Assembly (NCBI GenBank): GCA_964540395.1
Contig: CAZIME010000003.1
Location: forward strand, 11,800-75,799
Source: an uncultured Bifidobacterium sp.
Lineage (GTDB): Bacteria; Actinomycetota; Acidimicrobiia; Acidimicrobiales; Ilumatobacteraceae
Direction: 5' to 3'
Length of the DNA: 64,000 nt
The translations under genes and the position numbers were made by a program. This document shows, in pieces, positions 8,822 to 40,569 of this stretch (position 1 is its first letter; every line of letters begins with the position of its first letter). Below the pieces are notes generated by a model that searched no databases, was not told where the DNA came from, and saw nothing but the letters and a program-made list of their open reading frames with translations.

Positions 8822-9406
8822 TCAGCGGCCCTGCAATGCGACGGGCACGGTGAGACCAGCGGGCACCTCTTGAATGTGGACGTCGGCGCCCGCGCCGGTC
8901 GCTGCACGGCGACGCATGATCTCGCCGTCCTCGATGAGCTGGTGCAGGGTTTCGATCGCATGGATGAGGGTCTCCGGTGTCGGTGGACAACCCGGTGCGT
9001 ACACGTCGACGGGGACGATCTGATCGACGCCCTGCACGATGGCGTAGTTGTTGAACATTCCGCCGCTGCTCGCGCAGACGCCCATAGAGATGACCCACTT
9101 CGGTTCCATCATCTGGTCGTACACCTGTCGCAGTACCGGGGCCATCTTCTGGCTGACGCGGCCGGCAACGATCATGATGTCGGCCTGGCGCGGTGACGCA
9201 CGGAACACTTCCATGCCGAAGCGGGCGATGTCGTAGTGCGGTGCCCCGGTGCCCATCATCTCGATGGCGCAACACGCAAGCCCGAACGTCGCACCCCAGC
9301 TTGAACGCGAACGCGACCACTTCACGAGATCCTCGATGCGACCGGTGAGGAAGTTGTGGCGCATCCCTCCGAGACCCTCGTCGGCAATGTCGCGCAGGAC
9401 GCTCAC
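8822..9406 (-). CDS. nuoB: NADH-quinone oxidoreductase subunit B
   Basis: GTG at 9404-9406 overlaps the nuoA stop; an alternative ATG ends at 9364. Motifs are [20 protein letters not shown] and APGCPP. Confidence 0.92.
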
Positions 9407-9873
9407 CGTGAACCCACCAGTTCGGAGTTGCGCTCGCGACCTTCGAGACCCACGATTCGTACGTTGCAACCGGGCTCGGCAACGACTCCGACGTCGACGA
9501 GAGGGGCATCCTTCTTTATCGGACCCCAATCGAGTGCACCACGCGCCACGACGTACACGAACGCAACGAAGAACACCGCGCTGAACGCGACGATCTCCCA
9601 GAAGACGAATGCACCGAGTTCACGTTGCGAAACGGCGTACGGGTAGGCAAAGACGATCTCGATGTCGAACATGATGAACAACATCGCAACGACGTAGAAC
9701 GACACCGGGAAGCGCTCGGGGGCCTCGCGACTCGGCACGATGCCGCATTCGTACGGCGCGAGCTTTGCGCTGTTCGGCCGACGCGGCGCGAGGAGCTTCG
9801 ATGCGACGATGCTGATTGCGCCGAATCCGATGGCAAGCACCATCAGCACGATGATCGGAAGATACTGACCCAC
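9403..9873 (-). CDS. nuoA: NADH-quinone oxidoreductase subunit A (with C-terminal extension)
   Basis: 156 aa, ND3-like (PYECG, FDIEIVF). About 35 extra hydrophilic residues follow the last TM. Confidence 0.9.
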
Positions 9874-9891: not shown

Positions 9892-10725
9892 TCAGACCTT
9901 GTCGAGTTCTCGGTCGAGTTCTCGCGCAGCAGCCAGGTTCTGGCGCAGGATGAGATCGCGACGGTGCAACATCCAGCACAGGATGAGGAAGATCAGCGTC
10001 GAGCCGAGCGTGATGAAAATCGCCGGCTGACGTTTGTTGCCGAGGTCGCGAATCATGTGCACGTAACGGCGGTCCTGCGTCTCGTCGATCTTCGGTCGCG
10101 AGGGGGCACGACCCGGTTCGACGCGCTGCGGAAGCACCGGGGCGACTTCGACGAGCGCGTAACGCGGCTCGTGGAAGAAGGCGAAGAAGTCGAGTGTCTC
10201 GTTGACCTTCGGCCAACGCTCGCCGCCGCGTTCGTAGACAGCGACAGAGACGAACTCACCGGCGTCGAATTCACCCGCCTCGTTGATGAGGATGACGTCC
10301 GACGAGGCGACTGCCTGACCACGCTGAGGGTCCGACTCTTCGAGGCGCACCCATCCGTCCGCTTCGAGCGCAGTGGCGACGTTCGCCGCGGTTTCCACCG
10401 GGGTGGCACCGGGCTGCACCGAACCTGCGACGATCTCGGCGTTCTGCAGGAGTCGTGCATCGCGCACGATCGTTGCCGGTTCGGCGGGCTGCCAGGTGGG
10501 TGAGGCACCGGTGAGACCGATTCCGTATATCCACCACACGGCTCCCATGATCGCCATCCAGCCGAAGAATCCGCCGAGGATGACGAGAATGCCGAGTCGG
10601 GCGCCGAGGTTCGAGCCGACGATGAGGTACGTGCCGCCGATGAGCGCCACCGCCATCGTGATGACGACGATGATTCCGCGGAGGGTCGGCTCCCAGTTGA
10701 TTGCGAGGAGTGTTGCCAACGTCAT
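9892..10725 (-). CDS. Integral membrane protein, family not recognised
   Basis: 277 aa with three N-terminal TM helices, a hydrophilic middle and one C-terminal TM. Its ATG directly abuts the TAA of the upstream cytochrome c gene, and it ends 18 bp before nuoA. Confidence 0.7.
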   Translation of the reverse strand: MTLATLLAINWEPTLRGIIVVITMAVALIGGTYLIVGSNLGARLGILVILGGFFGWMAIMGAVWWIYGIGLTGASPTWQPAEPATIVRDARLLQNAEIVAGSVQPGATPVETAANVATALEADGWVRLEESDPQRGQAVASSDVILINEAGEFDAGEFVSVAVYERGGERWPKVNETLDFFAFFHEPRYALVEVAPVLPQRVEPGRAPSRPKIDETQDRRYVHMIRDLGNKRQPAIFITLGSTLIFLILCWMLHRRDLILRQNLAAARELDRELDKV

Positions 10726-11799
10726 TTAGAGACCTCGCACGTAGTCAACGATTGCCGCGATCTGATCCTCGGTGAGCATGCCGCCGAATCCGGGCATGCG
10801 TCCGCCACCCTGACCTTGTTCGCCGTAACGCTTGCCGTACTCACTGCCGGCGGTGATGAACGCGATCATGTCGGCTCTGTTCGGGAACTGACGGATCGTC
10901 GAACCGCCCGTGAGGTTCGGTCCGAATGCACCGCCACCGGTGATCTGCGGTTCACCGTATGACCAGCCCTTGGTGTGGCAGCGGGCGCACGAGTACTGGC
11001 CGCCGCCGAGATCGAGGTTGAACAATGCTTCACCGAGGGATCCGTACGTGCCGGCCGCGACGAGGCGTTCGGCTTCTTCCTGGATCTGATCCTTCGTCGA
11101 CGCGGGCAGCGTTCCCCCGGCACACGTGCGCGGATCGGCGTCCGCCACGTCGCAGTTCTCGCGCGGCACCTGGATCGACTTCATGTATTCGATGATCGTC
11201 TGGATCTGTTGCTCGTTCAGCGGGCCACCACCGACGAGACCCCACGCCGACATCGGCGAGAACGGACGTCCGTAGTTGAGGATGAAGCGAACTTCTTCCT
11301 CGTCGAATCGCGAAAACACCGTGTTCAGGGCCGGGGCCTTCCAGTTCACCGACTTCACTTCCCCGGTCGTCGGGTCGGTGACGGCGTACGAGGCGACGCC
11401 ACCGGCACCGCTCATGCCGCCGTGACATCCCGCGCAATTGAAACCACCGTCGGCGGTCGAGGCAAAGAGTCCCGAACCCCAACGCTCGAACTTGTGCTGG
11501 AAGTCCTTCTCTGCACCGACCTGTCGACCCGGTTCGAGGATCCAGTACAGCGGCAGCGCGATCGTGAGTACGGCGAGGAAACCGAGACCGAGCAACTGGG
11601 TGCGCTCGAGCTTCTTTCCCTCGAGGATTTCGTCGTCGTAGTACGGCTTGCGGTTCGCCGCGAGCTCGATCTCCGAACCGATTTCCTTGCGGCTCGAACG
11701 GATGTTGAAGATGCCGTAGAGCGCCCAGCCGCCGAGAGCGACGAAGAGGACGATCCACGCGAGCGTGGTCGTGACGGCGGCGAGCAATGGTGCGTTCAT
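10726..11799 (-). CDS. Membrane-anchored dihaem cytochrome c
   Basis: Track ORF trimmed to the ATG at 11797-11799 (MNAPLLAAVTTTLAWIVLFVALGG..., a TM anchor). It has two haem c motifs, CAGCH and CARCH. Confidence 0.88.
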   Translation of the reverse strand: MNAPLLAAVTTTLAWIVLFVALGGWALYGIFNIRSSRKEIGSEIELAANRKPYYDDEILEGKKLERTQLLGLGFLAVLTIALPLYWILEPGRQVGAEKDFQHKFERWGSGLFASTADGGFNCAGCHGGMSGAGGVASYAVTDPTTGEVKSVNWKAPALNTVFSRFDEEEVRFILNYGRPFSPMSAWGLVGGGPLNEQQIQTIIEYMKSIQVPRENCDVADADPRTCAGGTLPASTKDQIQEEAERLVAAGTYGSLGEALFNLDLGGGQYSCARCHTKGWSYGEPQITGGGAFGPNLTGGSTIRQFPNRADMIAFITAGSEYGKRYGEQGQGGGRMPGFGGMLTEDQIAAIVDYVRGL

Positions 11800-11809
11800 G
11801 CCCGTGACC

Positions 11810-12649
11810 TCAGTGCGCGCCCGCGGCACCGACGCAATGCGGTCCCTCGGCTTCCTGTCCGGTGGTGTTCGTGCCGATCGGCGGGCCACCGAAAACGGTT
11901 CCCGTATCGATGATCACCTGGCCGTTGACGACGGAGATGCCGAAGTGGTCCATACCTCGCGGCGCCGGGCCGGCCTTCTTCTCACCGACGCGGTTGTACT
12001 GCGAGCCGTGGCACGGGCATTCGAACCACTGCGATGTCTCGCACACCGGCACGCGGCAACCGAGGTGCGGGCACTTCTGGTACGACGCGACGACTCCCGC
12101 CTGCATTCCGGCGAACACGGGAGCCTGACTGCCGTACGCAGCTTCGGCCTTTGCGAGCGATTCCTTCGGGTATTCCGACACCCACGAGCGCGCTTCGGGA
12201 AGGTACAAGAAACCCTTGTTCGAACGGATCGCGGCGATGACGTCGTCGATCTTGCCCGCATTGATCTTCGATCCGAATCCACCCGACGCACCTCGCCAGA
12301 GGAACGCGACGACCGCGGCACCGAAACCGCCGAGACCTGCGCTCATCAGGGTCACCGTCGCACGGTTGAAGAACTGACGACGCGACACGCCGATGACTTC
12401 GGGATCCGGCGGCGACCACGGGGCAACCTCAGCAGCCTTGGGAACCGCCACCGCCGTCGAGGTTGCGCGAGCGTTCACCGCAGCTGCTTCCGCCGCGCGT
12501 GACGCCTTGCGCGACACGCGATCACGCAACTTCGTCTCACGCGAAAGCACGCCCACTCGGTCGCGACGACGGGTCGCGGTGACGGCGATGACGACGCCGA
12601 GCACGAAGAGCACGGCGACTGCGATGGAAATGATGGTGATGCTGCTCAT
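11810..12649 (-). CDS. Rieske 2Fe-2S protein of a cytochrome bc/b6-type complex
   Basis: 279 aa with an N-terminal TM. Rieske boxes are CPHLGC and CPCHGS. Confidence 0.9.
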   Translation of the reverse strand: MSSITIISIAVAVLFVLGVVIAVTATRRRDRVGVLSRETKLRDRVSRKASRAAEAAAVNARATSTAVAVPKAAEVAPWSPPDPEVIGVSRRQFFNRATVTLMSAGLGGFGAAVVAFLWRGASGGFGSKINAGKIDDVIAAIRSNKGFLYLPEARSWVSEYPKESLAKAEAAYGSQAPVFAGMQAGVVASYQKCPHLGCRVPVCETSQWFECPCHGSQYNRVGEKKAGPAPRGMDHFGISVVNGQVIIDTGTVFGGPPIGTNTTGQEAEGPHCVGAAGAH

Positions 12650-12661
12650 GGTGACCGCCGA

Positions 12662-13396
12662 TCAGAGCTCGAAGAAGATTCCGTCACGCCACGGGAACGT
12701 GAAGTTGAAGCCGGGACCGCGGAAGAACGAGCCAATGATGACGAGGATCGCCCAGAACATCATGTGAACCGTCATCAGACTCGTGATGAACTTGCGGTCT
12801 TCGGGTTTGTTCGACGGGTTGCGATCGAGGTACGGCGCGAACATCAACGCGATGAGTCCCATTCCCGGGATGGTGACGCCCGCGATCATCGGATGGAACA
12901 TCGTGAGCAGTTCCTGCAGCCCGAGGAAGTACCACGGGGCCTTCGACGGGTTCGGGGTCGCATTGAAGTTCGCTGCCTGCAGCAACGGCGCGTTGACGAA
13001 CCACGAGAACATGAACGTGAATGCGAGGCACGCGAGCGCGGCGACGAACTCGACGGACAGCAGGTGCGGCCACGTGTGCACCTTGTCGACCGGCACGGCC
13101 TTCACGTCCTGGATCGATCCCGACTTAACAACGGTGAGCAGGCGCTGGGTGTGACCTCCGGGGCCGGCACCCATCGGTACGCCACCGCCGACGGGGGCAG
13201 CAACGACCGGAGCCTTCGGTGCGTCGGCAACGGCGACGCCGCCGGCACGGGCAGCCTTCGAACGATCGAGGAGTTCCTGCGGGATGCGCGACGCGCCGGC
13301 ACTCTGCGCCGACGACGCGTCGTCACCGCCGGTCGATGCGGCCTTTTCGCGGGCCGCTTGGGCGCGCTTGAGAAGGTGTTCGGGGATCTCCGTCAT
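12662..13396 (-). CDS. Cytochrome b C-terminal half (subunit IV / PetD-like) with a long N-terminal extension
   Basis: 244 aa with three TM helices. The Qo-region motif is KAPWYFLGLQELL (PEWY-equivalent). About 100 hydrophilic residues precede the first TM. Confidence 0.85.
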   Translation of the reverse strand: MTEIPEHLLKRAQAAREKAASTGGDDASSAQSAGASRIPQELLDRSKAARAGGVAVADAPKAPVVAAPVGGGVPMGAGPGGHTQRLLTVVKSGSIQDVKAVPVDKVHTWPHLLSVEFVAALACLAFTFMFSWFVNAPLLQAANFNATPNPSKAPWYFLGLQELLTMFHPMIAGVTIPGMGLIALMFAPYLDRNPSNKPEDRKFITSLMTVHMMFWAILVIIGSFFRGPGFNFTFPWRDGIFFEL

Positions 13397-13420
13397 GGTC
13401 GTTGGGCTCCTTTCACCGGC

Positions 13421-14206
13421 TCACAGCGGTCCGGAAATTCCGCCGTCCTTGCGGACGCGCCAGAAGTGAATGGCGAGGAAGATCACCGTGACGAACGGGA
13501 ACAAGATGACGTGGAGTACGTACCAACGCAACAGCGTTTCCGGTCCGATCTCGGTTCCGCCGAGGAGCACGAACCGCACCTGCGATCCGATCACCGGTGA
13601 GTAGCCCATCATGTTCGTTCCCACTGCGACTGCCCACAGTGCGAGCTGGTCCCACGGCAACAGGTAGCCGGTGAACGACAGCAGCAAGGTGAGCGTGAGG
13701 AGGATGACGCCGACGACCCAGTTGAACTCGCGGGGTGCCTTGTATGCGCCGTGGTAGAAGACGCGCGCCATGTGGAGGAACACCGAGAGGACCATGAGGT
13801 GCGCGCCCCAGCGGTGCATGTTGCGCACCATGAGGCCGAAGGTCACCGACGTGTGCAACGACTGGATGTCGTCCCACGCGTTGGCGGCGGTCGGACGGTA
13901 GAAGAACATCAGGAAAATGCCCGTAATCGTGAGCAAAATGAACAGGAAGAAGGAAAGCCCGCCGAGACACAGCGTGTAGCTCACCTTCACCGCGTGTCGC
14001 TTCACCTTCACCGGGTGGAGGTGGTACAGCACCGAGTTCATGACGACGTACGAACGGTTGCGCGGTGAATCGGTGTATCCCTTGCGGAAGATCGAACCGG
14101 GGCGGAAGATGGAGTTCCACACCTGGCTGCCCTGCAGGGACTCGTTCACCTTGGCAATGCGCTCCTTCAGCGAAGGGCGGGGCTTTTCTTCAACGACGCT
14201 GGCCAT
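13421..14206 (-). CDS. Cytochrome b6-like protein (N-terminal four-helix half of cytochrome b)
   Basis: 261 aa. The haem ligand pairs are H130-x13-H144 and H231-x14-H246. It also has YTLCLGG (Cys80). Confidence 0.9.
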   Translation of the reverse strand: MASVVEEKPRPSLKERIAKVNESLQGSQVWNSIFRPGSIFRKGYTDSPRNRSYVVMNSVLYHLHPVKVKRHAVKVSYTLCLGGLSFFLFILLTITGIFLMFFYRPTAANAWDDIQSLHTSVTFGLMVRNMHRWGAHLMVLSVFLHMARVFYHGAYKAPREFNWVVGVILLTLTLLLSFTGYLLPWDQLALWAVAVGTNMMGYSPVIGSQVRFVLLGGTEIGPETLLRWYVLHVILFPFVTVIFLAIHFWRVRKDGGISGPL

Positions 14207-14217
14207 GAATCGCTCCT

Positions 14218-14631
14218 TTAGAACCGCATCCCGTAGGCGTAACCGTGATTGTTCGTGCGCGCGTGGGGGTCACCGTTTGCCGGTGCCACACCGACCTTGC
14301 CCAACACGATGACGCCGGTCGGGCAACGGTCGACGCACAGTGCGCATCGCGTGCAGATGTCGTCGTCGATGACGAACACGACGTGGTCGGAGGGATCGGC
14401 GCCGGGCATCTCGGTGCCGGTCGATTCGACGACGGCTCCCGGGTTCACCATGTGGATGCACTTCCACGGGCAGATGTCGACGCAGCCCTCGCACATGATG
14501 CATTCGCTCTGATCGATGTGGATGAACTGCTTCGGCTTCACTGCCTTGCTGAGGTAGTCGGCATCGACCTCGACGAGGTGGTACTCGTCGGTGAACGGCA
14601 TCATCGGCGGATTGGCATCAGTGCGAGTCAC
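14218..14631 (-). CDS. 2[4Fe-4S] ferredoxin-like protein
   Basis: 137 aa with no TM or signal peptide. Motifs are CIMCEGCVDICP and CTRCALCVDRCP. Confidence 0.85.
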   Translation of the reverse strand: MTRTDANPPMMPFTDEYHLVEVDADYLSKAVKPKQFIHIDQSECIMCEGCVDICPWKCIHMVNPGAVVESTGTEMPGADPSDHVVFVIDDDICTRCALCVDRCPTGVIVLGKVGVAPANGDPHARTNNHGYAYGMRF

Positions 14632-14637
14632 GGTCGA

Positions 14638-15114
14638 TCACCCCTTCCTCACGAGCGGACGGCCATACGTGCTGGTCGGCAGGGCCTTCGGCTTCTGTTC
14701 GCCGCGCTTCTGCCACCAAGCAAACAGGTAAATCATCAGGCCGATGTAGAAGGCGTGGATGACGATGACGATGATGTCGCGAATCGCCTCGTAAGAAATG
14801 GTGAAGGCGAAGGGGCCCCCGAGTTCCTGGGGCTTCAGGAGATCGAAGGGTCCGAAGATGATCTTGTCCTTGCGCCAGCCGAGATCCTTGTCGGCATGGT
14901 CGATCCATTGGTGGGGCACGACTCCGAAGGCAAGGAACAACACGAAGAAGGCGTACGCGGAACCGAACATCGCCTCACCCCACGTCGCCTTGCGGTCGGA
15001 GCGACGGCGCTTGCCGACGGGAATGATGACGAGAGCGAGGGCGGTGGTGATGATGAACGAGAAGAGGAACGCCTGGTTCATCCCCGGCCATCTCAGAACG
15101 TCGACTGCCAACAT
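14638..15114 (-). CDS. Small integral membrane protein, family not recognised
   Basis: 158 aa with 3-4 hydrophobic helices. It is the first gene of the string; an alternative ATG ends at 15081 (MNQAFLF...). Confidence 0.65.
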   Translation of the reverse strand: MLAVDVLRWPGMNQAFLFSFIITTALALVIIPVGKRRRSDRKATWGEAMFGSAYAFFVLFLAFGVVPHQWIDHADKDLGWRKDKIIFGPFDLLKPQELGGPFAFTISYEAIRDIIVIVIHAFYIGLMIYLFAWWQKRGEQKPKALPTSTYGRPLVRKG

Positions 15115-15298
15115 GCGTGTCGAAGCCTAGTAGGGGTGCCGATCGCAGGCATATCGTGGAGATAAGTGCGCTCGTGCATGAACTTCGGTCGTCGACTCCC
15201 ATCGGGTTAGTCTCTTCGGTTGTGTTTGCAGCTCATCGTGCCGCGCTCGTGCTCTCCACGGTTGCAGTGAGGCTGCCCGTCGAAAAGGCATCGCTGTC

Positions 15299-16123
15299 AT
15301 GACCGAAGTACCCGATTATCTCCTCAAGCGCTCGCGCGACCGGCGCGCGGTTCTGCAGGGTGGAACTCCGTCCGCCGACGCACCCGCCGCATCGAGCGCA
15401 GCCGTTGAAAAGGCGACGAGTTCGTCCGCTGCACCCGCCGTCGCAGCAGAGCCGACTCCTCCGCCGCCCCCGAAACCCGATCCTGCATACGTCGTTGCGG
15501 CAAAGACCCGCAAGAAGATTCCGTTCTGGGCAATGGCCACGCTGAGTTTGTTGCCGTTGTGGGCATTTCTCTATCTCCTCGCATTGTCGCCGCAGGAAGA
15601 AACCGTCGAAGGTCCGATGGCCATCGGTGCCGAGGTCTACGGATCGTGCGCAAGCTGCCACGGTGCCGCCGGACAGGGCGGTGCGGGTCGCATTCTCCAC
15701 GAAGGCGAAGTACTCCTCACCTTCCCGCACATCGAAGACATGCTGAACTTCGTCTACACGGGCAGCCAGCCGTACGTATCGGCCGGACTCAACGTGTACG
15801 GCAACCCCGAGCGCGAAGGTGGCGTGCACGCGCCGTTGTCGTACAACGGCAACGCGATGCCGTCACAGGGTGCCAAGTGGGGCGGCGGTCTCACCGAGTA
15901 CGAAATTCTCGGCGTCGTGTGCCACGTGCGCTACGCCATTTCGGGTGCCGATCCGGCGAGCGAGGAATGGCTCGAGGAATACGAGCGGTGGTGCTCACCG
16001 GAATCGGAGATCTTCGCCGGACTGCAGGACGGAACGACGACGTTCGACACGGTCGCCGACACGTTCAACATGCTCGAGAATCCGCCGCGCATCGTCGGCA
16101 CCGAAGCGCGCGCGTCGAAGTAA
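15299..16123 (+). CDS. Membrane-anchored monohaem cytochrome c
   Basis: 274 aa with an Ala/Pro-rich linker, one TM (IPFWAMATLSLLPLWAFLYLLAL) and a single CASCH motif. Confidence 0.85.
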   Translation: MTEVPDYLLKRSRDRRAVLQGGTPSADAPAASSAAVEKATSSSAAPAVAAEPTPPPPPKPDPAYVVAAKTRKKIPFWAMATLSLLPLWAFLYLLALSPQEETVEGPMAIGAEVYGSCASCHGAAGQGGAGRILHEGEVLLTFPHIEDMLNFVYTGSQPYVSAGLNVYGNPEREGGVHAPLSYNGNAMPSQGAKWGGGLTEYEILGVVCHVRYAISGADPASEEWLEEYERWCSPESEIFAGLQDGTTTFDTVADTFNMLENPPRIVGTEARASK

Positions 16124-16222: not shown

Positions 16223-17476
16223 ATGACGACCCCCGATTCGTCGCGCGTACTCGTCATCGGTGCGGGTCCGGGCGGTGCGGCGATGGGTTACTGGCTCGCC
16301 CGGCACGGCCACGACGTCACCCTCGTCGAGAAGAAGCACTTTCCCCGCGACAAGACGTGCGGTGACGGCCTCACCCCACGTGCCGTGAAGCAACTCGAGG
16401 ACATGGGGCTCACCGACGCGTTGTCGAAGCACCATCGTTACGACGGACTTCGCGCCACGGCCCACGGTCGGCAACTCGAGTTGCAGTGGCCGAGCCATCC
16501 GATCTATCCGCAGCACGGCTACGTCGTGCGACGCCGCGACCTCGACATGATGGTCGCGCACAATGCCCGCGATGCCGGCGCCACGTTGCTCGAGGGACAC
16601 GAAGCCACCCAGCCGATCGTCGAGCGAGGGTGCGTGCGCGGAGCGGTCGTGCGCGATCTCGATCGCGACGTCACGACGGAGATGCGCGCCGACTACGTCG
16701 TCATCGCCGACGGGGCGAACAGCCGGTTCGGACGGTCGCTCGGGACGTCGCGCACGAAGGAATGGCCGTACGGCACCGCGATTCGCACGTACTGGCAGAG
16801 TCCGCGCCATGCCGACCCGTGGATCGAATCGGCCCTCGACGTGAAGGATCGCAACGGCGACTCGATGCCGGGCTACGGATGGATCTTCCCCGTCGGCGAC
16901 GGCACGATCAACGTCGGTGTCGGACTTCTCTCCACCTTCAAGAACTTCCGCCAGGTGAACACGTCGCATCTGCTCGATTCGTACGCGCACATGATCGCCG
17001 ATACGTGGGGCATCGATCCGTCGTCACCCGAATGCCGGGCGACGAGCGGCAAGATTCCGATGGGCGGATCGGTTTTCCCGAAGCAAGGTGCAACGCACCT
17101 CGTCATCGGTGATGCAGCAGGCAGTGTGAACCCCTTCAACGGCGAGGGCATCGACTATGCGTACGAAACTGCGCGCATCGGTGCCGACGTTCTGCACGAG
17201 GCGATCATGACGAACGACGCCACGATTCTCACCCGTTACCCGACGTTGCTCGATGCCGAGTACGGGCAGTACTTCAAGGTGGCCCGCCTGTTCGCGCGGG
17301 TGATCGGGCGACCGGCGCTCATGCGCGAACTGTCGCGCGTCGGAATTCGCAGCCACACGCTCATGGAATGGGTGCTGCGTATCATGGCCAACTTGTTGCG
17401 ACCCGACGAGCGCGGTCCTGCTGAAGTTGCGTACAAGATGGCTGCGGCGATCGTGCGCCTCGCGCCGAACGCCTGA
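16223..17476 (+). CDS. Geranylgeranyl reductase family FAD-dependent oxidoreductase (possible menaquinone side-chain reductase)
   Basis: 417 aa. It has the VLVIGAGPGGAAMGYWLARHGHDVTLVEKK dinucleotide fold and CGDGLTPRA. Confidence 0.85.
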   Translation: MTTPDSSRVLVIGAGPGGAAMGYWLARHGHDVTLVEKKHFPRDKTCGDGLTPRAVKQLEDMGLTDALSKHHRYDGLRATAHGRQLELQWPSHPIYPQHGYVVRRRDLDMMVAHNARDAGATLLEGHEATQPIVERGCVRGAVVRDLDRDVTTEMRADYVVIADGANSRFGRSLGTSRTKEWPYGTAIRTYWQSPRHADPWIESALDVKDRNGDSMPGYGWIFPVGDGTINVGVGLLSTFKNFRQVNTSHLLDSYAHMIADTWGIDPSSPECRATSGKIPMGGSVFPKQGATHLVIGDAAGSVNPFNGEGIDYAYETARIGADVLHEAIMTNDATILTRYPTLLDAEYGQYFKVARLFARVIGRPALMRELSRVGIRSHTLMEWVLRIMANLLRPDERGPAEVAYKMAAAIVRLAPNA

Positions 17477-18113: not shown

Positions 18114-18812
18114 TTAGACGCCGACCGCGTCGGTTCGGGGCGACGAGCCCGCCGACCGCATCTGCTCGTGGTAACCGAGGATCTGCAGTTCGACGCCGAG
18201 GTCGACATTGCGCACCGACACGCCGTTCGGAACCGTCAGTACGACGGGTGCGAAGTTGAGCAACGATCCGATACCGGCGGCGATGAGATCATCGGCGACG
18301 CTCTGTGCCGCCGTCGACGGGACGGCGACGACTCCGATTCGTACGCCCATCGATTGCACCACTTCCTTCATGTCATCCATGTGTCGCACGGTTGCTCCAC
18401 CGATCTTCGTGCCCACCTTCTTCGGGTCGACGTCGAACAGACACGCAACGGGAAATCCGCGCGACGCGAAGCCACCGTTCGTCGCCAGGGCCGAGCCCAG
18501 GTTCCCCGCGCCGGCGACGACGACTTTCCACTCGGTGAGCAGGCCGAGCTCGCGCTTGATTTGGTAGACGAGGTAGGTCACCTCGTACCCCACCCCGCGC
18601 GTTCCGTACGTGCCGAGGTACGACAGGTCCTTGCGGACCTTCGCCGCATTGACACCGGCGAGTGCCGCGAGCTGATCACTGGAGATTTGGTGCGTCTCGG
18701 TCATCTGCAAGTCGCTGAGAATCTGCAGATAGACGGGTAGCCGATTGACGGCGGCATCGGGAATGCGCCGTGACCGGCGTGGGCTGGTGGGAACGTCGGG
18801 AGGGGTCGACAT
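18114..18812 (-). CDS. rex: Redox-sensing transcriptional repressor Rex
   Basis: Start set at MSTPPDV (ATG ends 18812; an alternative ends 18842). Motifs are RLPVYLQIL, SYLGTYGTRGVGYEV and the Rossmann VVVAGAGNLGSALA. Confidence 0.9.
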   Translation of the reverse strand: MSTPPDVPTSPRRSRRIPDAAVNRLPVYLQILSDLQMTETHQISSDQLAALAGVNAAKVRKDLSYLGTYGTRGVGYEVTYLVYQIKRELGLLTEWKVVVAGAGNLGSALATNGGFASRGFPVACLFDVDPKKVGTKIGGATVRHMDDMKEVVQSMGVRIGVVAVPSTAAQSVADDLIAAGIGSLLNFAPVVLTVPNGVSVRNVDLGVELQILGYHEQMRSAGSSPRTDAVGV

Positions 18813-18952
18813 GGCCCCAAGGGTAGGTGCCTCGTGCAGCATTTCACGAAGTCGGGCGCCCGACGTGCCGCATGCCACGCGCTGCGGGACGATACGTCTG
18901 GATGACCCGTCCACGATGCATCGCGGCGTTCCGGACGTGAAGACTGTGCGGG

Positions 18953-40493: not shown

Positions 40494-40568
40494 CGGGGAG
40501 TAGCGCAGCTTGGTTAGCGCGCCACGTTCGGGACGTGGAGGCCGGGAGTTCAAATCTCCCCTCCCCGA
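40494..40568 (+). tRNA. tRNA-Pro (anticodon CGG)
   Basis: Hand-folded cloverleaf. The acceptor CGGGGAG pairs with CTCCCCG. The D arm is GCGC/GCGC. The anticodon stem CCACG/CGTGG closes the loop TTCGGGA. The T arm is GGGAG-TTCAAAT-CTCCC, with discriminator A and no encoded CCA. Confidence 0.88.
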
Positions 40569-40569
40569 C

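Follow-up and report, generated by a model that had tools for sequence, protein, structure and literature searches.

Among Rieske/cytochrome b complexes, the split cytochrome b of Ilumatobacter coccineum and an "APWY clade" were catalogued by Kao and Hunte in 2014 (PMC4122944), APWY being a recognised natural variant of the Qo motif. The clade is uncharacterised and taxonomically mixed, with delta-proteobacterial complexes placed in it, and the I. coccineum pair is one of five actinobacterial pairs found in the APWY clade or the PEWY-cyt c clade (PMC4122944). Short cytochromes b bearing the CxGG motif are also described outside cyanobacteria and firmicutes (Baymann et al. 2012, PMC3509893; Dibrova et al. 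2017, PMC5600118). A further arrangement is known from the anammox bacterium Kuenenia, for which a 2025 study (PMC12954380) reports Rieske potentials above +300 mV together with menaquinone-7 and an NAD(P) oxidoreductase on the n-side. This iron-sulfur oxidoreductase co-migrates with the complex, AlphaFold3 models place it on the n-side with four iron-sulfur clusters leading from haem cn to FAD, and the pairing of a high-potential Rieske centre with menaquinone motivated a proposal of electron bifurcation (PMC12954380). Here we describe a seven-gene module in a 64,000-nucleotide stretch of contig CAZIME010000003.1 from an uncultured member of the Ilumatobacteraceae, order Acidimicrobiales (this whole stretch is called the window), in which a b6-type core is accompanied by a small ferredoxin, Fdx137, and two membrane proteins, M158 and M277. 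The anammox-type Rieske/cytochrome b complex with its cytoplasmic iron-sulfur oxidoreductase is the closest described analogue of this module, and it was not named in the first-pass annotation.

The module consists of seven minus-strand open reading frames (ORFs) within positions 9892-15114, all co-directional and tightly packed, with gaps of 6, 11, 24, 12, 10, and 0 nt between consecutive genes. In the 5' to 3' direction the order is M158, Fdx137, cytochrome b6, subunit IV, Rieske, dihaem cytochrome c, and M277, and the ORF list of the window places every gene exactly where the first-pass annotation had put it. The ORFs were assigned with Pfam and NCBIfam profile models, and PDB sequences served for comparison with solved structures. 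The Pfam searches proposed in that annotation returned Fer4 dicluster families, Cytochrome_B, Cytochrom_B_C, Rieske, and two cytochrome c domains, and no match for M158 or M277. No sequence feature of a b6-type quinol:cytochrome c oxidoreductase is missing from the core, and the module is best read as a b6-type Rieske/cytochrome b complex of the APWY clade with a predicted menaquinol:cytochrome c oxidoreductase activity. The earlier view of a b6c-like quinol oxidoreductase with at least three extra candidate subunits is supported by synteny and profile homology, and the three may be physically associated with the core.

Evidence for a single unit comes from gene content in related genomes. We scanned one genome per species and selected 80 loci by the b6 protein alone (83-95% identical); they are labelled Ilumatobacteraceae, Acidimicrobiales, Acidimicrobiia, or unclassified Actinomycetota, with a few evident mislabels of metagenome-assembled genomes. 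On these labels, the window is assigned to an Acidimicrobiia of freshwater type. Counting only loci whose contig extends far enough, Fdx137 is present in 77/77 and always directly upstream of b6, M158 in 74/74, subunit IV in 75/75, the Rieske gene in 68/68, cytochrome c in 63/63, and M277 in 62/62. The complex I gene nuoA follows M277 in 61/61 loci, and a divergently transcribed cytochrome c gene, CytC274, is present in 69/69. All 60 loci holding the seven genes plus nuoA have identical order and strand. Since the loci were picked by b6 alone, these counts are an unbiased test of the other genes within Acidimicrobiales, and the gene arrangement is not chance. Median identity to the window proteins is highest for b6 (86%) and the ferredoxin (81%), followed by subunit IV (74%), M158 (64%), Rieske (63%), cytochrome c (62%), and M277 (56%).

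The same unit recurs far outside this order. A metagenome scan seeded with distant members of the ferredoxin family gave 80 soil and sediment loci, four of which were sampled for composition (G+C 0.66-0.72, compared with 62-67% in the window). Full-length distant ferredoxins are 37-46% identical to Fdx137 (32-48% for distant modules overall), and the two clusters that carry a name are labelled "Actinomycetota bacterium." The b6 gene lies directly after the ferredoxin gene in 75 of the 80 loci, the other five stopping at a contig edge, and its product is 65-75% identical to that of the window. On contigs that run further, the genes stand in the order (M158-like)-ferredoxin-b6-subunit IV-Rieske-cytochrome c-(M277-like), and gene calls made independently on contigs of 321 kb and 63 kb (L164 and L165) recovered all seven, the first two overlapping by 4 nt. 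Signature motifs are kept as well: APWYF in 40/40 loci, [TF/TY]CLGG in 52/58, and a CPCHGS[KR]Y[NS] Rieske box in 24/25. The surroundings are different, with hemL, resB/ccsA or ccmABCEF, and COX1 (haem-copper oxidase) as neighbours and no nuo genes near the module in any distant locus. That the module stays intact across lineages with such different surroundings points to an old, stable unit, and the co-inheritance of Fdx137, M158, and M277 with the core argues that they are dedicated components of one machine. Ferredoxin, M158, and M277 are thus syntenic with the split cytochrome b in every available Acidimicrobiales locus and in the distant lineages, as the first-pass annotation had proposed to check. 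What belongs largely to Acidimicrobiales is the nuo junction, the divergently transcribed cytochrome c, and the second haem of the c subunit: cytochrome c is monohaem in 19/20 metagenome loci scored and dihaem in L159, L164, and L165, and outside Acidimicrobiales CytC274 finds a single weak match (L165, 24% identity, E 0.008), which falls over the cytochrome c gene.

The first-pass annotation had suggested that this may be a distinct, poorly described member of the family and had taken a split b6 with subunit IV as the hallmark of the cyanobacterial, firmicute, and heliobacterial complexes. The second statement is too narrow, as split b6 is not confined to these groups (PMC3509893). The first is supported, with the qualification that the cytochrome b clade itself is already catalogued. 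No mention of a small ferredoxin, M158, or M277 in such operons was found in the literature on these complexes; within the searchable literature, neither the dedicated ferredoxin and the two orphan proteins nor their deep conservation and connection to the anammox arm appear to have been described. Complex III of Acidimicrobiia differs from the textbook actinobacterial QcrCAB.

Table 1. Features of the module and its surroundings in the window (positions in the 64,000-nucleotide stretch; TM, transmembrane; aa, amino acids)
Feature	Position	Strand	Description
M158	14638..15114	-	158-aa membrane protein; first gene of operon; three predicted TM helices
Fdx137	14218..14631	-	137-aa 2[4Fe-4S] ferredoxin-type protein; Fer4 dicluster families; two CxxCxxCxxxCP motifs
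Fdx137 cluster motif CIMCEGCVDICP	14467-14502	-	
Fdx137 cluster motif CTRCALCVDRCP	14320-14355	-	
Cytochrome b6-type subunit	13421..14206	-	261 aa; Cytochrome_B Pfam, 155 bits
b6 motif VWxSIFRxG	14096-14122	-	
b6 N-terminal extension segment MNSVLYHLHPVKVKRH	13994..14041	-	His62, His64, His71; 9-18 residues ahead of haem cn cysteine
b6 CLGG motif (Cys80)	13958..13969	-	aligns with FYCLGG of spinach b6
Subunit-IV-type protein	12662..13396	-	244 aa; Cytochrom_B_C Pfam; three TM helices, APWY
Subunit IV N-terminal peptide MTEIPEHLLKRAQAARE	13346..13396	-	near-invariant in Acidimicrobiales loci
Subunit IV second peptide copy RIPQELLDRSKAAR	13247-13288	-	about 35 residues after the first; linkers variable, low-complexity
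Subunit IV Qo motif APWY	12929-12940	-	residues 153-156
Rieske subunit	11810..12649	-	279 aa; Rieske Pfam; CPHLGC and CPCHGSQYN
Rieske Tat-like motif SRRQFF	12368-12385	-	
Rieske box II CPCHGSQYN	11993-12019	-	Ser/Tyr signature
Dihaem cytochrome c	10726..11799	-	357 aa; two cytochrome c domains; CAGCH and CARCH; mechanical ORF 10726-11889
M277	9892..10725	-	277-aa membrane protein; last gene of module before nuoA
M277 LHRRD end	9955-9969	-	invariant His
nuoA	9403..9873	-	Oxidored_q4 and NuoA profile matches; first gene of complex I operon
Divergent intergenic region M158/CytC274	15115..15298	.	184 bp; presumed promoter region of both genes
CytC274	15299..16123	+	membrane-anchored monohaem cytochrome c, divergent
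CytC274 N-terminal peptide MTEVPDYLLKR	15299-15340	+	
CytC274 haem motif CASCH	15647-15661	+	
MenJ-like menaquinone (isoprenoid) reductase homologue	16223-17476	+	337 bits, equivalog cut-off of 700 not reached; downstream of CytC274
Rex-like redox-sensing repressor gene	18114-18914	-	3 kb from operon
Rex-box-like palindrome TCGTGCAGCATTTCACGA	18832-18849		weak, three mismatches; in 5' region of the rex gene itself
tRNA-Pro (CGG)	40494-40569	+	sole RNA gene in the window (Rfam and ARAGORN)

Judged by its sequence, the cytochrome b of the window is truly b6-type and is not a recently split QcrB. Its best relatives in a PDB sequence search are chloroplast and cyanobacterial cytochrome b6 (162-171 bits), compared to about 115 bits for cytochrome b of the bc1 type and of proteobacteria; actinobacterial QcrB scores about 85 bits. 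His131, His145, His232, and His247 align with the four ligands of haems bL and bH in spinach b6, the C-terminal GISGPL is kept as in chloroplast b6 with the split at the same place, and an arginine five residues after His247 is kept as in the haem cn pocket of b6f. By the CxGG rule for the haem cn cysteine (PMC4122944, PMC5600118), Cys80 is a candidate covalent ligand of haem cn (also called ci). As in the green clade, a four-helix b6 and a three-helix subunit IV are encoded by separate ORFs with the canonical split position, and the general sequence marks of bc-type complexes are all present: four histidine ligands, an adjacent gene with the Rieske CxHxGC and CxCH boxes, and a Qo motif of the xxWY form. 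APWY combined with a short, CxGG-bearing cytochrome b points to the APWY clade, which corresponds to subfamily G of Dibrova et al.; the ExtP match and the identity to oxidoreductase-linked APWY cytochromes b, both given below, are indirect support. The best NCBIfam model for b6 is ExtP (NF040969; 304.9 bits, cut-off 290), and subunit IV weakly matches ExtQ; the actinobacterial models fail by a wide distance, with 117 bits for b6 against QcrB (NF050120, cut-off 500) and 21 bits for the Rieske protein against QcrA (NF050121, cut-off 275). The ExtP hit means that automated annotation could name this b6 "selenite/tellurite reduction operon b-type cytochrome," a probable misannotation.

Both cytochrome b proteins carry long N-terminal extensions. 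That of b6, 75 residues long and conserved, is absent from chloroplast b6 and contains two clade-wide motifs before the haem cn cysteine, VWxSIFRxG and [YFH]HLHP. The second lies in the MNSVLYHLHPVKVKRH segment, which is identical or near-identical in 78/78 Acidimicrobiales and 52/58 distant loci, and the oxidoreductase-linked cytochrome b of a metagenome locus described below (L163) has FFLHLHPVSL and an upstream VWRSIFRHG at the corresponding positions. In the Kuenenia models, one histidine in the N-terminal region of each b6-like subunit (His43/His62) holds an extra haem b between monomers (PMC12954380); the MNSVLYHLHPVKVKRH histidines are candidate equivalents by analogy. VWxSIFRxG lies upstream of b6 residue 55, where the ExtP model begins, and is present in the cytochromes b that have an n-side iron-sulfur partner (the window module and L163); it is perhaps a docking site for that partner.

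The subunit IV extension, about 100 residues and predicted to be cytoplasmic, opens with a peptide of the form (M/V)TE[IV]P[ED][HY]LLKR[AS]xxxR that also opens CytC274. This peptide is kept in almost all of the 80 inspected Acidimicrobiales loci, the most divergent included, and apart from the copies in Table 1 none was found elsewhere in the 64-kb window. Distant-lineage subunit IV lacks it and has a different helical N-terminus. Its occurrence in both subunit IV and CytC274 suggests a common cytoplasmic docking partner or a targeting signal. At the other end, subunit IV stops after its third helix (...GIFFEL) and has no CxxCH.

The Rieske protein is laid out as an N-terminal TM helix, a cytoplasmic linker, the Tat-like motif with a second TM helix, and the cluster boxes. 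The Ser/Tyr signature of its box II is classed as high-potential (PMC4122944, PMC12954380), and from these two residues the centre is predicted to be of high potential. A high-potential Rieske centre combined with menaquinone, for which a MenJ-like gene lies adjacent, is an energetically unusual pairing. For cytochrome c, the ATG at 11799 is the most likely start, since orthologues are mostly 353-357 aa and the apparent overlap with the Rieske gene then vanishes. It matches class I domains (Cytochrome_CBB3, Cytochrom_C) and not cytochrome f; no PDB relative was detected at E<=0.01, solved QcrC chains included, there is no QcrC model among the six NCBIfam matches at E<=0.01, and Pfam finds no Pet small-subunit family (PetG/L/M/N) among the seven ORFs. 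An N-terminally anchored dihaem protein had been predicted. The two haem motifs agree with this, and the anchor, as read from the sequence, is a membrane hairpin of two hydrophobic segments, not a single helix. In the most divergent Acidimicrobiales loci (L054, L069, and L075), cytochrome c is 496-536 aa, some 150 residues above the typical length, and M277 is also longer (304-372 aa).

Fdx137 has no signal peptide or TM segment and is predicted to be cytoplasmic. Its N-terminus is extended by a conserved stretch (DY..VD..L..VKPK), a long insert separates its cluster motifs, and at 69-93% identity across 80 Acidimicrobiales species its conservation is second only to that of b6. A homologue search from the single sequence returned near relatives alone (76-93% identity), and an exhaustive search of 1.84 billion representative proteins revealed a small family: 635 clusters pass E<=1e-3 and 151 pass E<=1e-10, and many are fragments or frameshifted read-throughs. 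In 160 loci (80 selected by b6 and 80 seeded with the ferredoxin) this family was never met away from a b6 gene. Once multi-domain polyferredoxins are set aside, the nearest single-domain matches beyond this family lie in P0494, P0495, and P0507 (identity 38-42%, E 6e-13 to 2e-11), proteins of about 600 aa composed of Fer4_20, a GltD-like Pyr_redox_2, and a C-terminal 2[4Fe-4S] domain. Fdx137 matches this C-terminal domain, and both have an unusually long inter-motif insert and an RCPTG(A/V)I ending. All three GltD-like proteins are encoded inside Rieske/cytochrome b clusters: oxidoreductase-Rieske in L161, where the Rieske gene is the sole adjacent complex gene in the locus; b6-subunit IV (APWY, five helices)-oxidoreductase-multihaem cytochromes in L162; and oxidoreductase-Rieske-fused cytochrome b (APWY)-multihaem cytochrome in L163. 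The window b6 is 54-64% identical to the cytochromes b of these oxidoreductase-linked APWY clusters, which by analogy read as the anammox/planctomycete kind. No Pyr_redox_2 or Fer4_20 domain is found by Pfam in the seven window ORFs, nor in the distant modules.

The cluster representatives also include apparent fusions, and frameshifted read-throughs among them could pass for natural ones. The ferredoxin-b6 and M158-ferredoxin fusions P0379, P0381, P0398, P0420, P0449, P0452, and P0471 were rejected as read-throughs of this kind, with Arg/Pro/Gly-rich out-of-frame stretches, and P0367 was rejected because it looks chimeric.

M158 and M277 represent two orphan membrane-protein families (3851 and 1310 database proteins at E<=1e-3) placed in a respiratory module. 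M158 ends in a tail with a near-invariant S-x-x-GRPLV, and its AlphaFold2 model (predicted local distance difference test [pLDDT] score 85.7) has helices at residues 14-36, 45-76, and 108-135. In M277, two N-terminal TM helices are followed by an alpha/beta domain of about 150 residues on the extracytoplasmic side and by a last TM helix that ends in LHRRD (AlphaFold2 pLDDT 75.5). Neither has a Pfam, NCBIfam, or PDB match (the PDB profile search gave zero hits for each), and Foldseek against the PDB gave best E values of 2.4 for M158 and 0.5 for M277. Their counterparts in the distant lineages, which have no Pfam match either, are homologous by hhalign: M158 to the ORF upstream of the ferredoxin (97.3%, E 2.5e-11) and M277 to the ORF after cytochrome c (99.4%, E 5.7e-22).

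What could a dedicated ferredoxin do in such a complex? Membrane topology gives a first indication. The N-termini of b6 and subunit IV are probably cytoplasmic, as are the GRPLV tail of M158 and the LHRRD end of M277, and the inter-helix linker of the Rieske protein and the hairpin loop of cytochrome c would face the same side. Together with a ferredoxin that has no export signal, these termini and loops suggest a sizeable conserved cytoplasmic assembly, with Fdx137 as its sole cofactor-bearing soluble part. On balance, we consider it probable, by a modest measure, that Fdx137 is a bound n-side subunit providing an electron path, in whichever direction, between the haem bH/cn end and the cytoplasm, and that M158 and M277 are membrane subunits. 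In our best explanation, Fdx137 would be a stripped-down form of the anammox-type iron-sulfur arm on the cytoplasmic (n) side, docked, as homology and topology suggest, on the long conserved N-terminal stretches that b6 and subunit IV carry; the two [4Fe-4S] clusters of Fdx137 would link the haem bH/cn end of the low-potential chain with the cytoplasm, and M158 and M277 would hold this n-side assembly in the membrane. Menaquinol oxidation by the high-potential Rieske centre would produce a very low-potential electron, and part of the low-potential flux would exit via Fdx137 to a cytoplasmic acceptor, instead of or alongside menaquinone reduction at Qi. With this outward exit included, we hold the explanation only tentatively. 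The direction of electron flow is its weakest step, favoured because a Ser/Tyr Rieske protein with menaquinone implies a very reducing Qo semiquinone, as in the Kuenenia proposal; the signature occurs in both Acidimicrobiales and distant lineages.

Several points weigh against this explanation. The membership of Fdx137, M158, and M277 is read from a conserved gene order, which is equally expected for assembly factors, and the search of 1.84 billion representatives produced no natural ferredoxin-b6 fusion. The haem cn pocket looks intact by the standard of b6f (Cys80, the arginine after His247, GISGPL), so that a normal Q cycle would need no extra outlet, and Pfam detects no flavoprotein or other acceptor module among the seven ORFs of the operon. 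The high Rieske potential is predicted from a two-residue signature, and the Kuenenia mechanism is itself a proposal supported by models (PMC12954380). Finally, the hosts appear to be aerobes with complex I in the same operon, and for such organisms the need for a quinol-driven low-potential reductant is not obvious.

In a conservative alternative, possible though doubtful in our judgement, the module is a canonical b6c-type menaquinol:cytochrome c reductase with a normal Q cycle, and Fdx137, M158, and M277 are assembly, maturation, or stabilising factors outside the electron path, which might for example help to attach haem cn covalently or to insert the Rieske cluster. Strict synteny is also expected of assembly genes, and Qi-side residues kept as in b6f, haem cn pocket included, fit this reading; lineages with haem cn need a maturation system, for which the operon has no Pfam-recognisable candidate while M158 and M277 match no family; and in the distant lineages cytochrome c maturation genes adjoin the module. 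Yet an assembly factor would not usually be more conserved than the Rieske protein and cytochrome c, as Fdx137 is; the domains nearest to Fdx137 outside its family come from a protein that, in Kuenenia, migrates together with the complex (PMC12954380); and n-side extensions as long and invariant as those of b6 and subunit IV imply a partner that stays bound in the cytoplasm. Mere co-transcription, with the ferredoxin as a general soluble carrier and the membrane ORFs unrelated, is quite improbable. Respiratory genes are often clustered, the operon of the window runs on into nuo, and the ferredoxin carries generic Fer4 domains alone; however, the seven-gene unit is intact where all surroundings, nuo included, differ, the ferredoxin family is narrow and stayed with b6 throughout the 160 loci, and the start and stop codons of the M158-like and ferredoxin genes overlap in L164 and L165.

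If Fdx137 is part of the electron path, it might instead serve as an entry port, with electrons passing from reduced cytoplasmic ferredoxin or another low-potential donor through the clusters and haem cn to menaquinone, in a ferredoxin:quinone reductase reaction like that long proposed for b6f in cyclic electron flow. The structural evidence for this is identical to that for the outward exit, the reaction is thermodynamically downhill and needs an intact-looking Qi/haem cn site, which b6 has, and the idea that haem cn receives ferredoxin electrons is standard in the b6f literature (PMC5600118). We nevertheless regard it as unlikely: it leaves the high-potential Rieske signature with menaquinone unexplained, it would waste the energy of a low-potential reductant, even though the operon also encodes complex I, and the analogous reverse direction was rejected for Kuenenia on energetic grounds (PMC12954380). 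As for a recent, trivial split of an ordinary actinobacterial QcrB, which the first-pass annotation had named as the finding that would overturn its reading, an actinobacterial host and a cytochrome c that is dihaem like QcrC might recommend it, but it can practically be dismissed. It is refuted by the PDB comparison (171 bits to chloroplast b6, twice the QcrB score), by QcrB and QcrA model scores far below cut-off, and by a cytochrome c without detectable similarity to any solved QcrC; moreover, the haem cn cysteine and APWY are present, and the split is common to lineages whose b6 is only 65-75% identical.

Returning to the outward exit through Fdx137, its most far-reaching form is that deep-branching, apparently aerobic actinobacteria use the complex as a quinol-driven, electron-bifurcating ferredoxin reductase. 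We think this improbable, and it is argued by analogy. The downhill passage of one electron from menaquinol through the high-potential Rieske centre and cytochrome c to O2 would pay for the path of the second, which would run via haems bL, bH, and cn, possibly with an extra haem at the YHLHP histidines, into the 2[4Fe-4S] subunit. If true, low-potential reductant would be made directly from the respiratory chain, in a minimal, oxygen-linked form of a mechanism so far proposed for anammox bacteria alone, and a genetically simple system would be at hand for testing the purpose of haem cn. The role of haem cn and the exchange of electrons between b6-type complexes and n-side ferredoxin have been debated since the first b6f structures, and the question of n-side exchange touches on cyclic electron flow by way of ferredoxin:quinone reductase. 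In the literature found, a hard-wired n-side iron-sulfur arm is described for anammox bacteria alone, which are slow-growing and for which the mechanism is model-based. A minimal arm in actinobacteria that are abundant in fresh water and soil, one lineage of which (Ilumatobacter) has cultured members, would be experimentally approachable.

Around the module, the complex I operon occupies the first 9.9 kb of the window, and M277 is separated from nuoA on the same strand by 18 nt, a gap in which a terminator scan found no terminator-like site. The seven genes and the complex I operon probably share a transcript, and with nuoA next in all 61 loci, complexes I and III may be co-transcribed in Acidimicrobiales generally. 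Upstream, a scan of the 184-bp divergent region found no sigma-70-like consensus, inverted repeat, or Rex box. CytC274, on its other side, is a candidate partner of the complex, in Acidimicrobiales only. A Rex-like repressor gene lies nearby, with a weak palindrome in its own 5' region; Rex-box-like matches are just as numerous as expected by chance, and none falls inside the promoter region of the operon. Among the distant contigs, the module of L164 (2828-6714) adjoins System II maturation genes (ResB, CcsA-like, DsbD, and thioredoxin), and that of L165 (2656-7271) adjoins the System I genes ccmABCEF. As System I cytochrome c maturation is not usual in Actinomycetota, L165 may represent another phylum, or its ccm genes may have arrived by lateral transfer.

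How does the module compare with known systems? The Geobacter ExtOPQ proteins are related in that the window b6 passes the ExtP cut-off and subunit IV weakly resembles ExtQ. The gene context is entirely different, as the ext cluster extHIJKLMNOPQS encodes multihaem cytochromes (ExtM has 12 haems), a porin, and a rhodanese but no ferredoxin (PMC5877670), and the ExtP model lacks the first part of the b6 N-terminal extension. The actinobacterial bcc complex (QcrCAB of Mycobacterium, Corynebacterium, and Streptomyces) comes from the same phylum, its c subunit is likewise dihaem, and in its Rieske protein, too, additional N-terminal membrane helices precede a Tat-like signal. However, QcrB is unsplit, about 540 aa long, and without the haem cn cysteine, and the window proteins fail the QcrB and QcrA models and have no similarity to solved QcrC.

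The firmicute and heliobacterial b6c complexes (QcrABC) are respiratory, menaquinol-oxidising, and b6-type like the module, with a haem cn cysteine, a c-type acceptor, and a Gram-positive host. In Bacillus, subunit IV is fused to its cytochrome c, whereas in the window cytochrome c is separate and hairpin-anchored and subunit IV lacks CxxCH. In addition, their operons are not described with a ferredoxin, M158, or M277, and the Qo motif of firmicutes is PDWY (PMC4122944), compared with APWY in the window. The cyanobacterial and chloroplast b6f complex gives the best solved match, with the same split place, CxGG, four histidines, and GISGPL. In contrast to it, the module has no cytochrome f or recognisable PetG/L/M/N, has APWY instead of PEWY at Qo, and bears long N-terminal extensions on both b6 and subunit IV. 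Its ferredoxin gene lies in the operon itself, whereas ferredoxin/FNR binding to b6f is transient or debated (PMC5600118).

The likeness is closest to the anammox type (Kuenenia Kuste4569-4574 and Kustd1480-1485; "subfamily G"). Features common to the two are a b6-like cytochrome b of four helices with a [YFH]-H-L-H-P N-terminal extension, a separate subunit IV, with APWY also in the metagenome loci read as the anammox kind (L162 and L163), a high- or mid-high-potential Rieske signature with menaquinone, and an n-side iron-sulfur module, that of the anammox type being homologous to Fdx137. The differences are in how these parts are built. The iron-sulfur module of the window is a free-standing protein of 137 aa that lacks flavin and NAD(P) domains; subunit IV is built of three helices behind a long N-terminal extension, compared with five helices in the anammox type (L162 and L163 continue for two more); and the c subunit is dihaem, or mostly monohaem in the distant lineages, where the anammox type has hexa- or octahaem cytochromes. 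Lastly, the module of the window adds two orphan membrane proteins, and its hosts are apparently aerobic actinobacteria.

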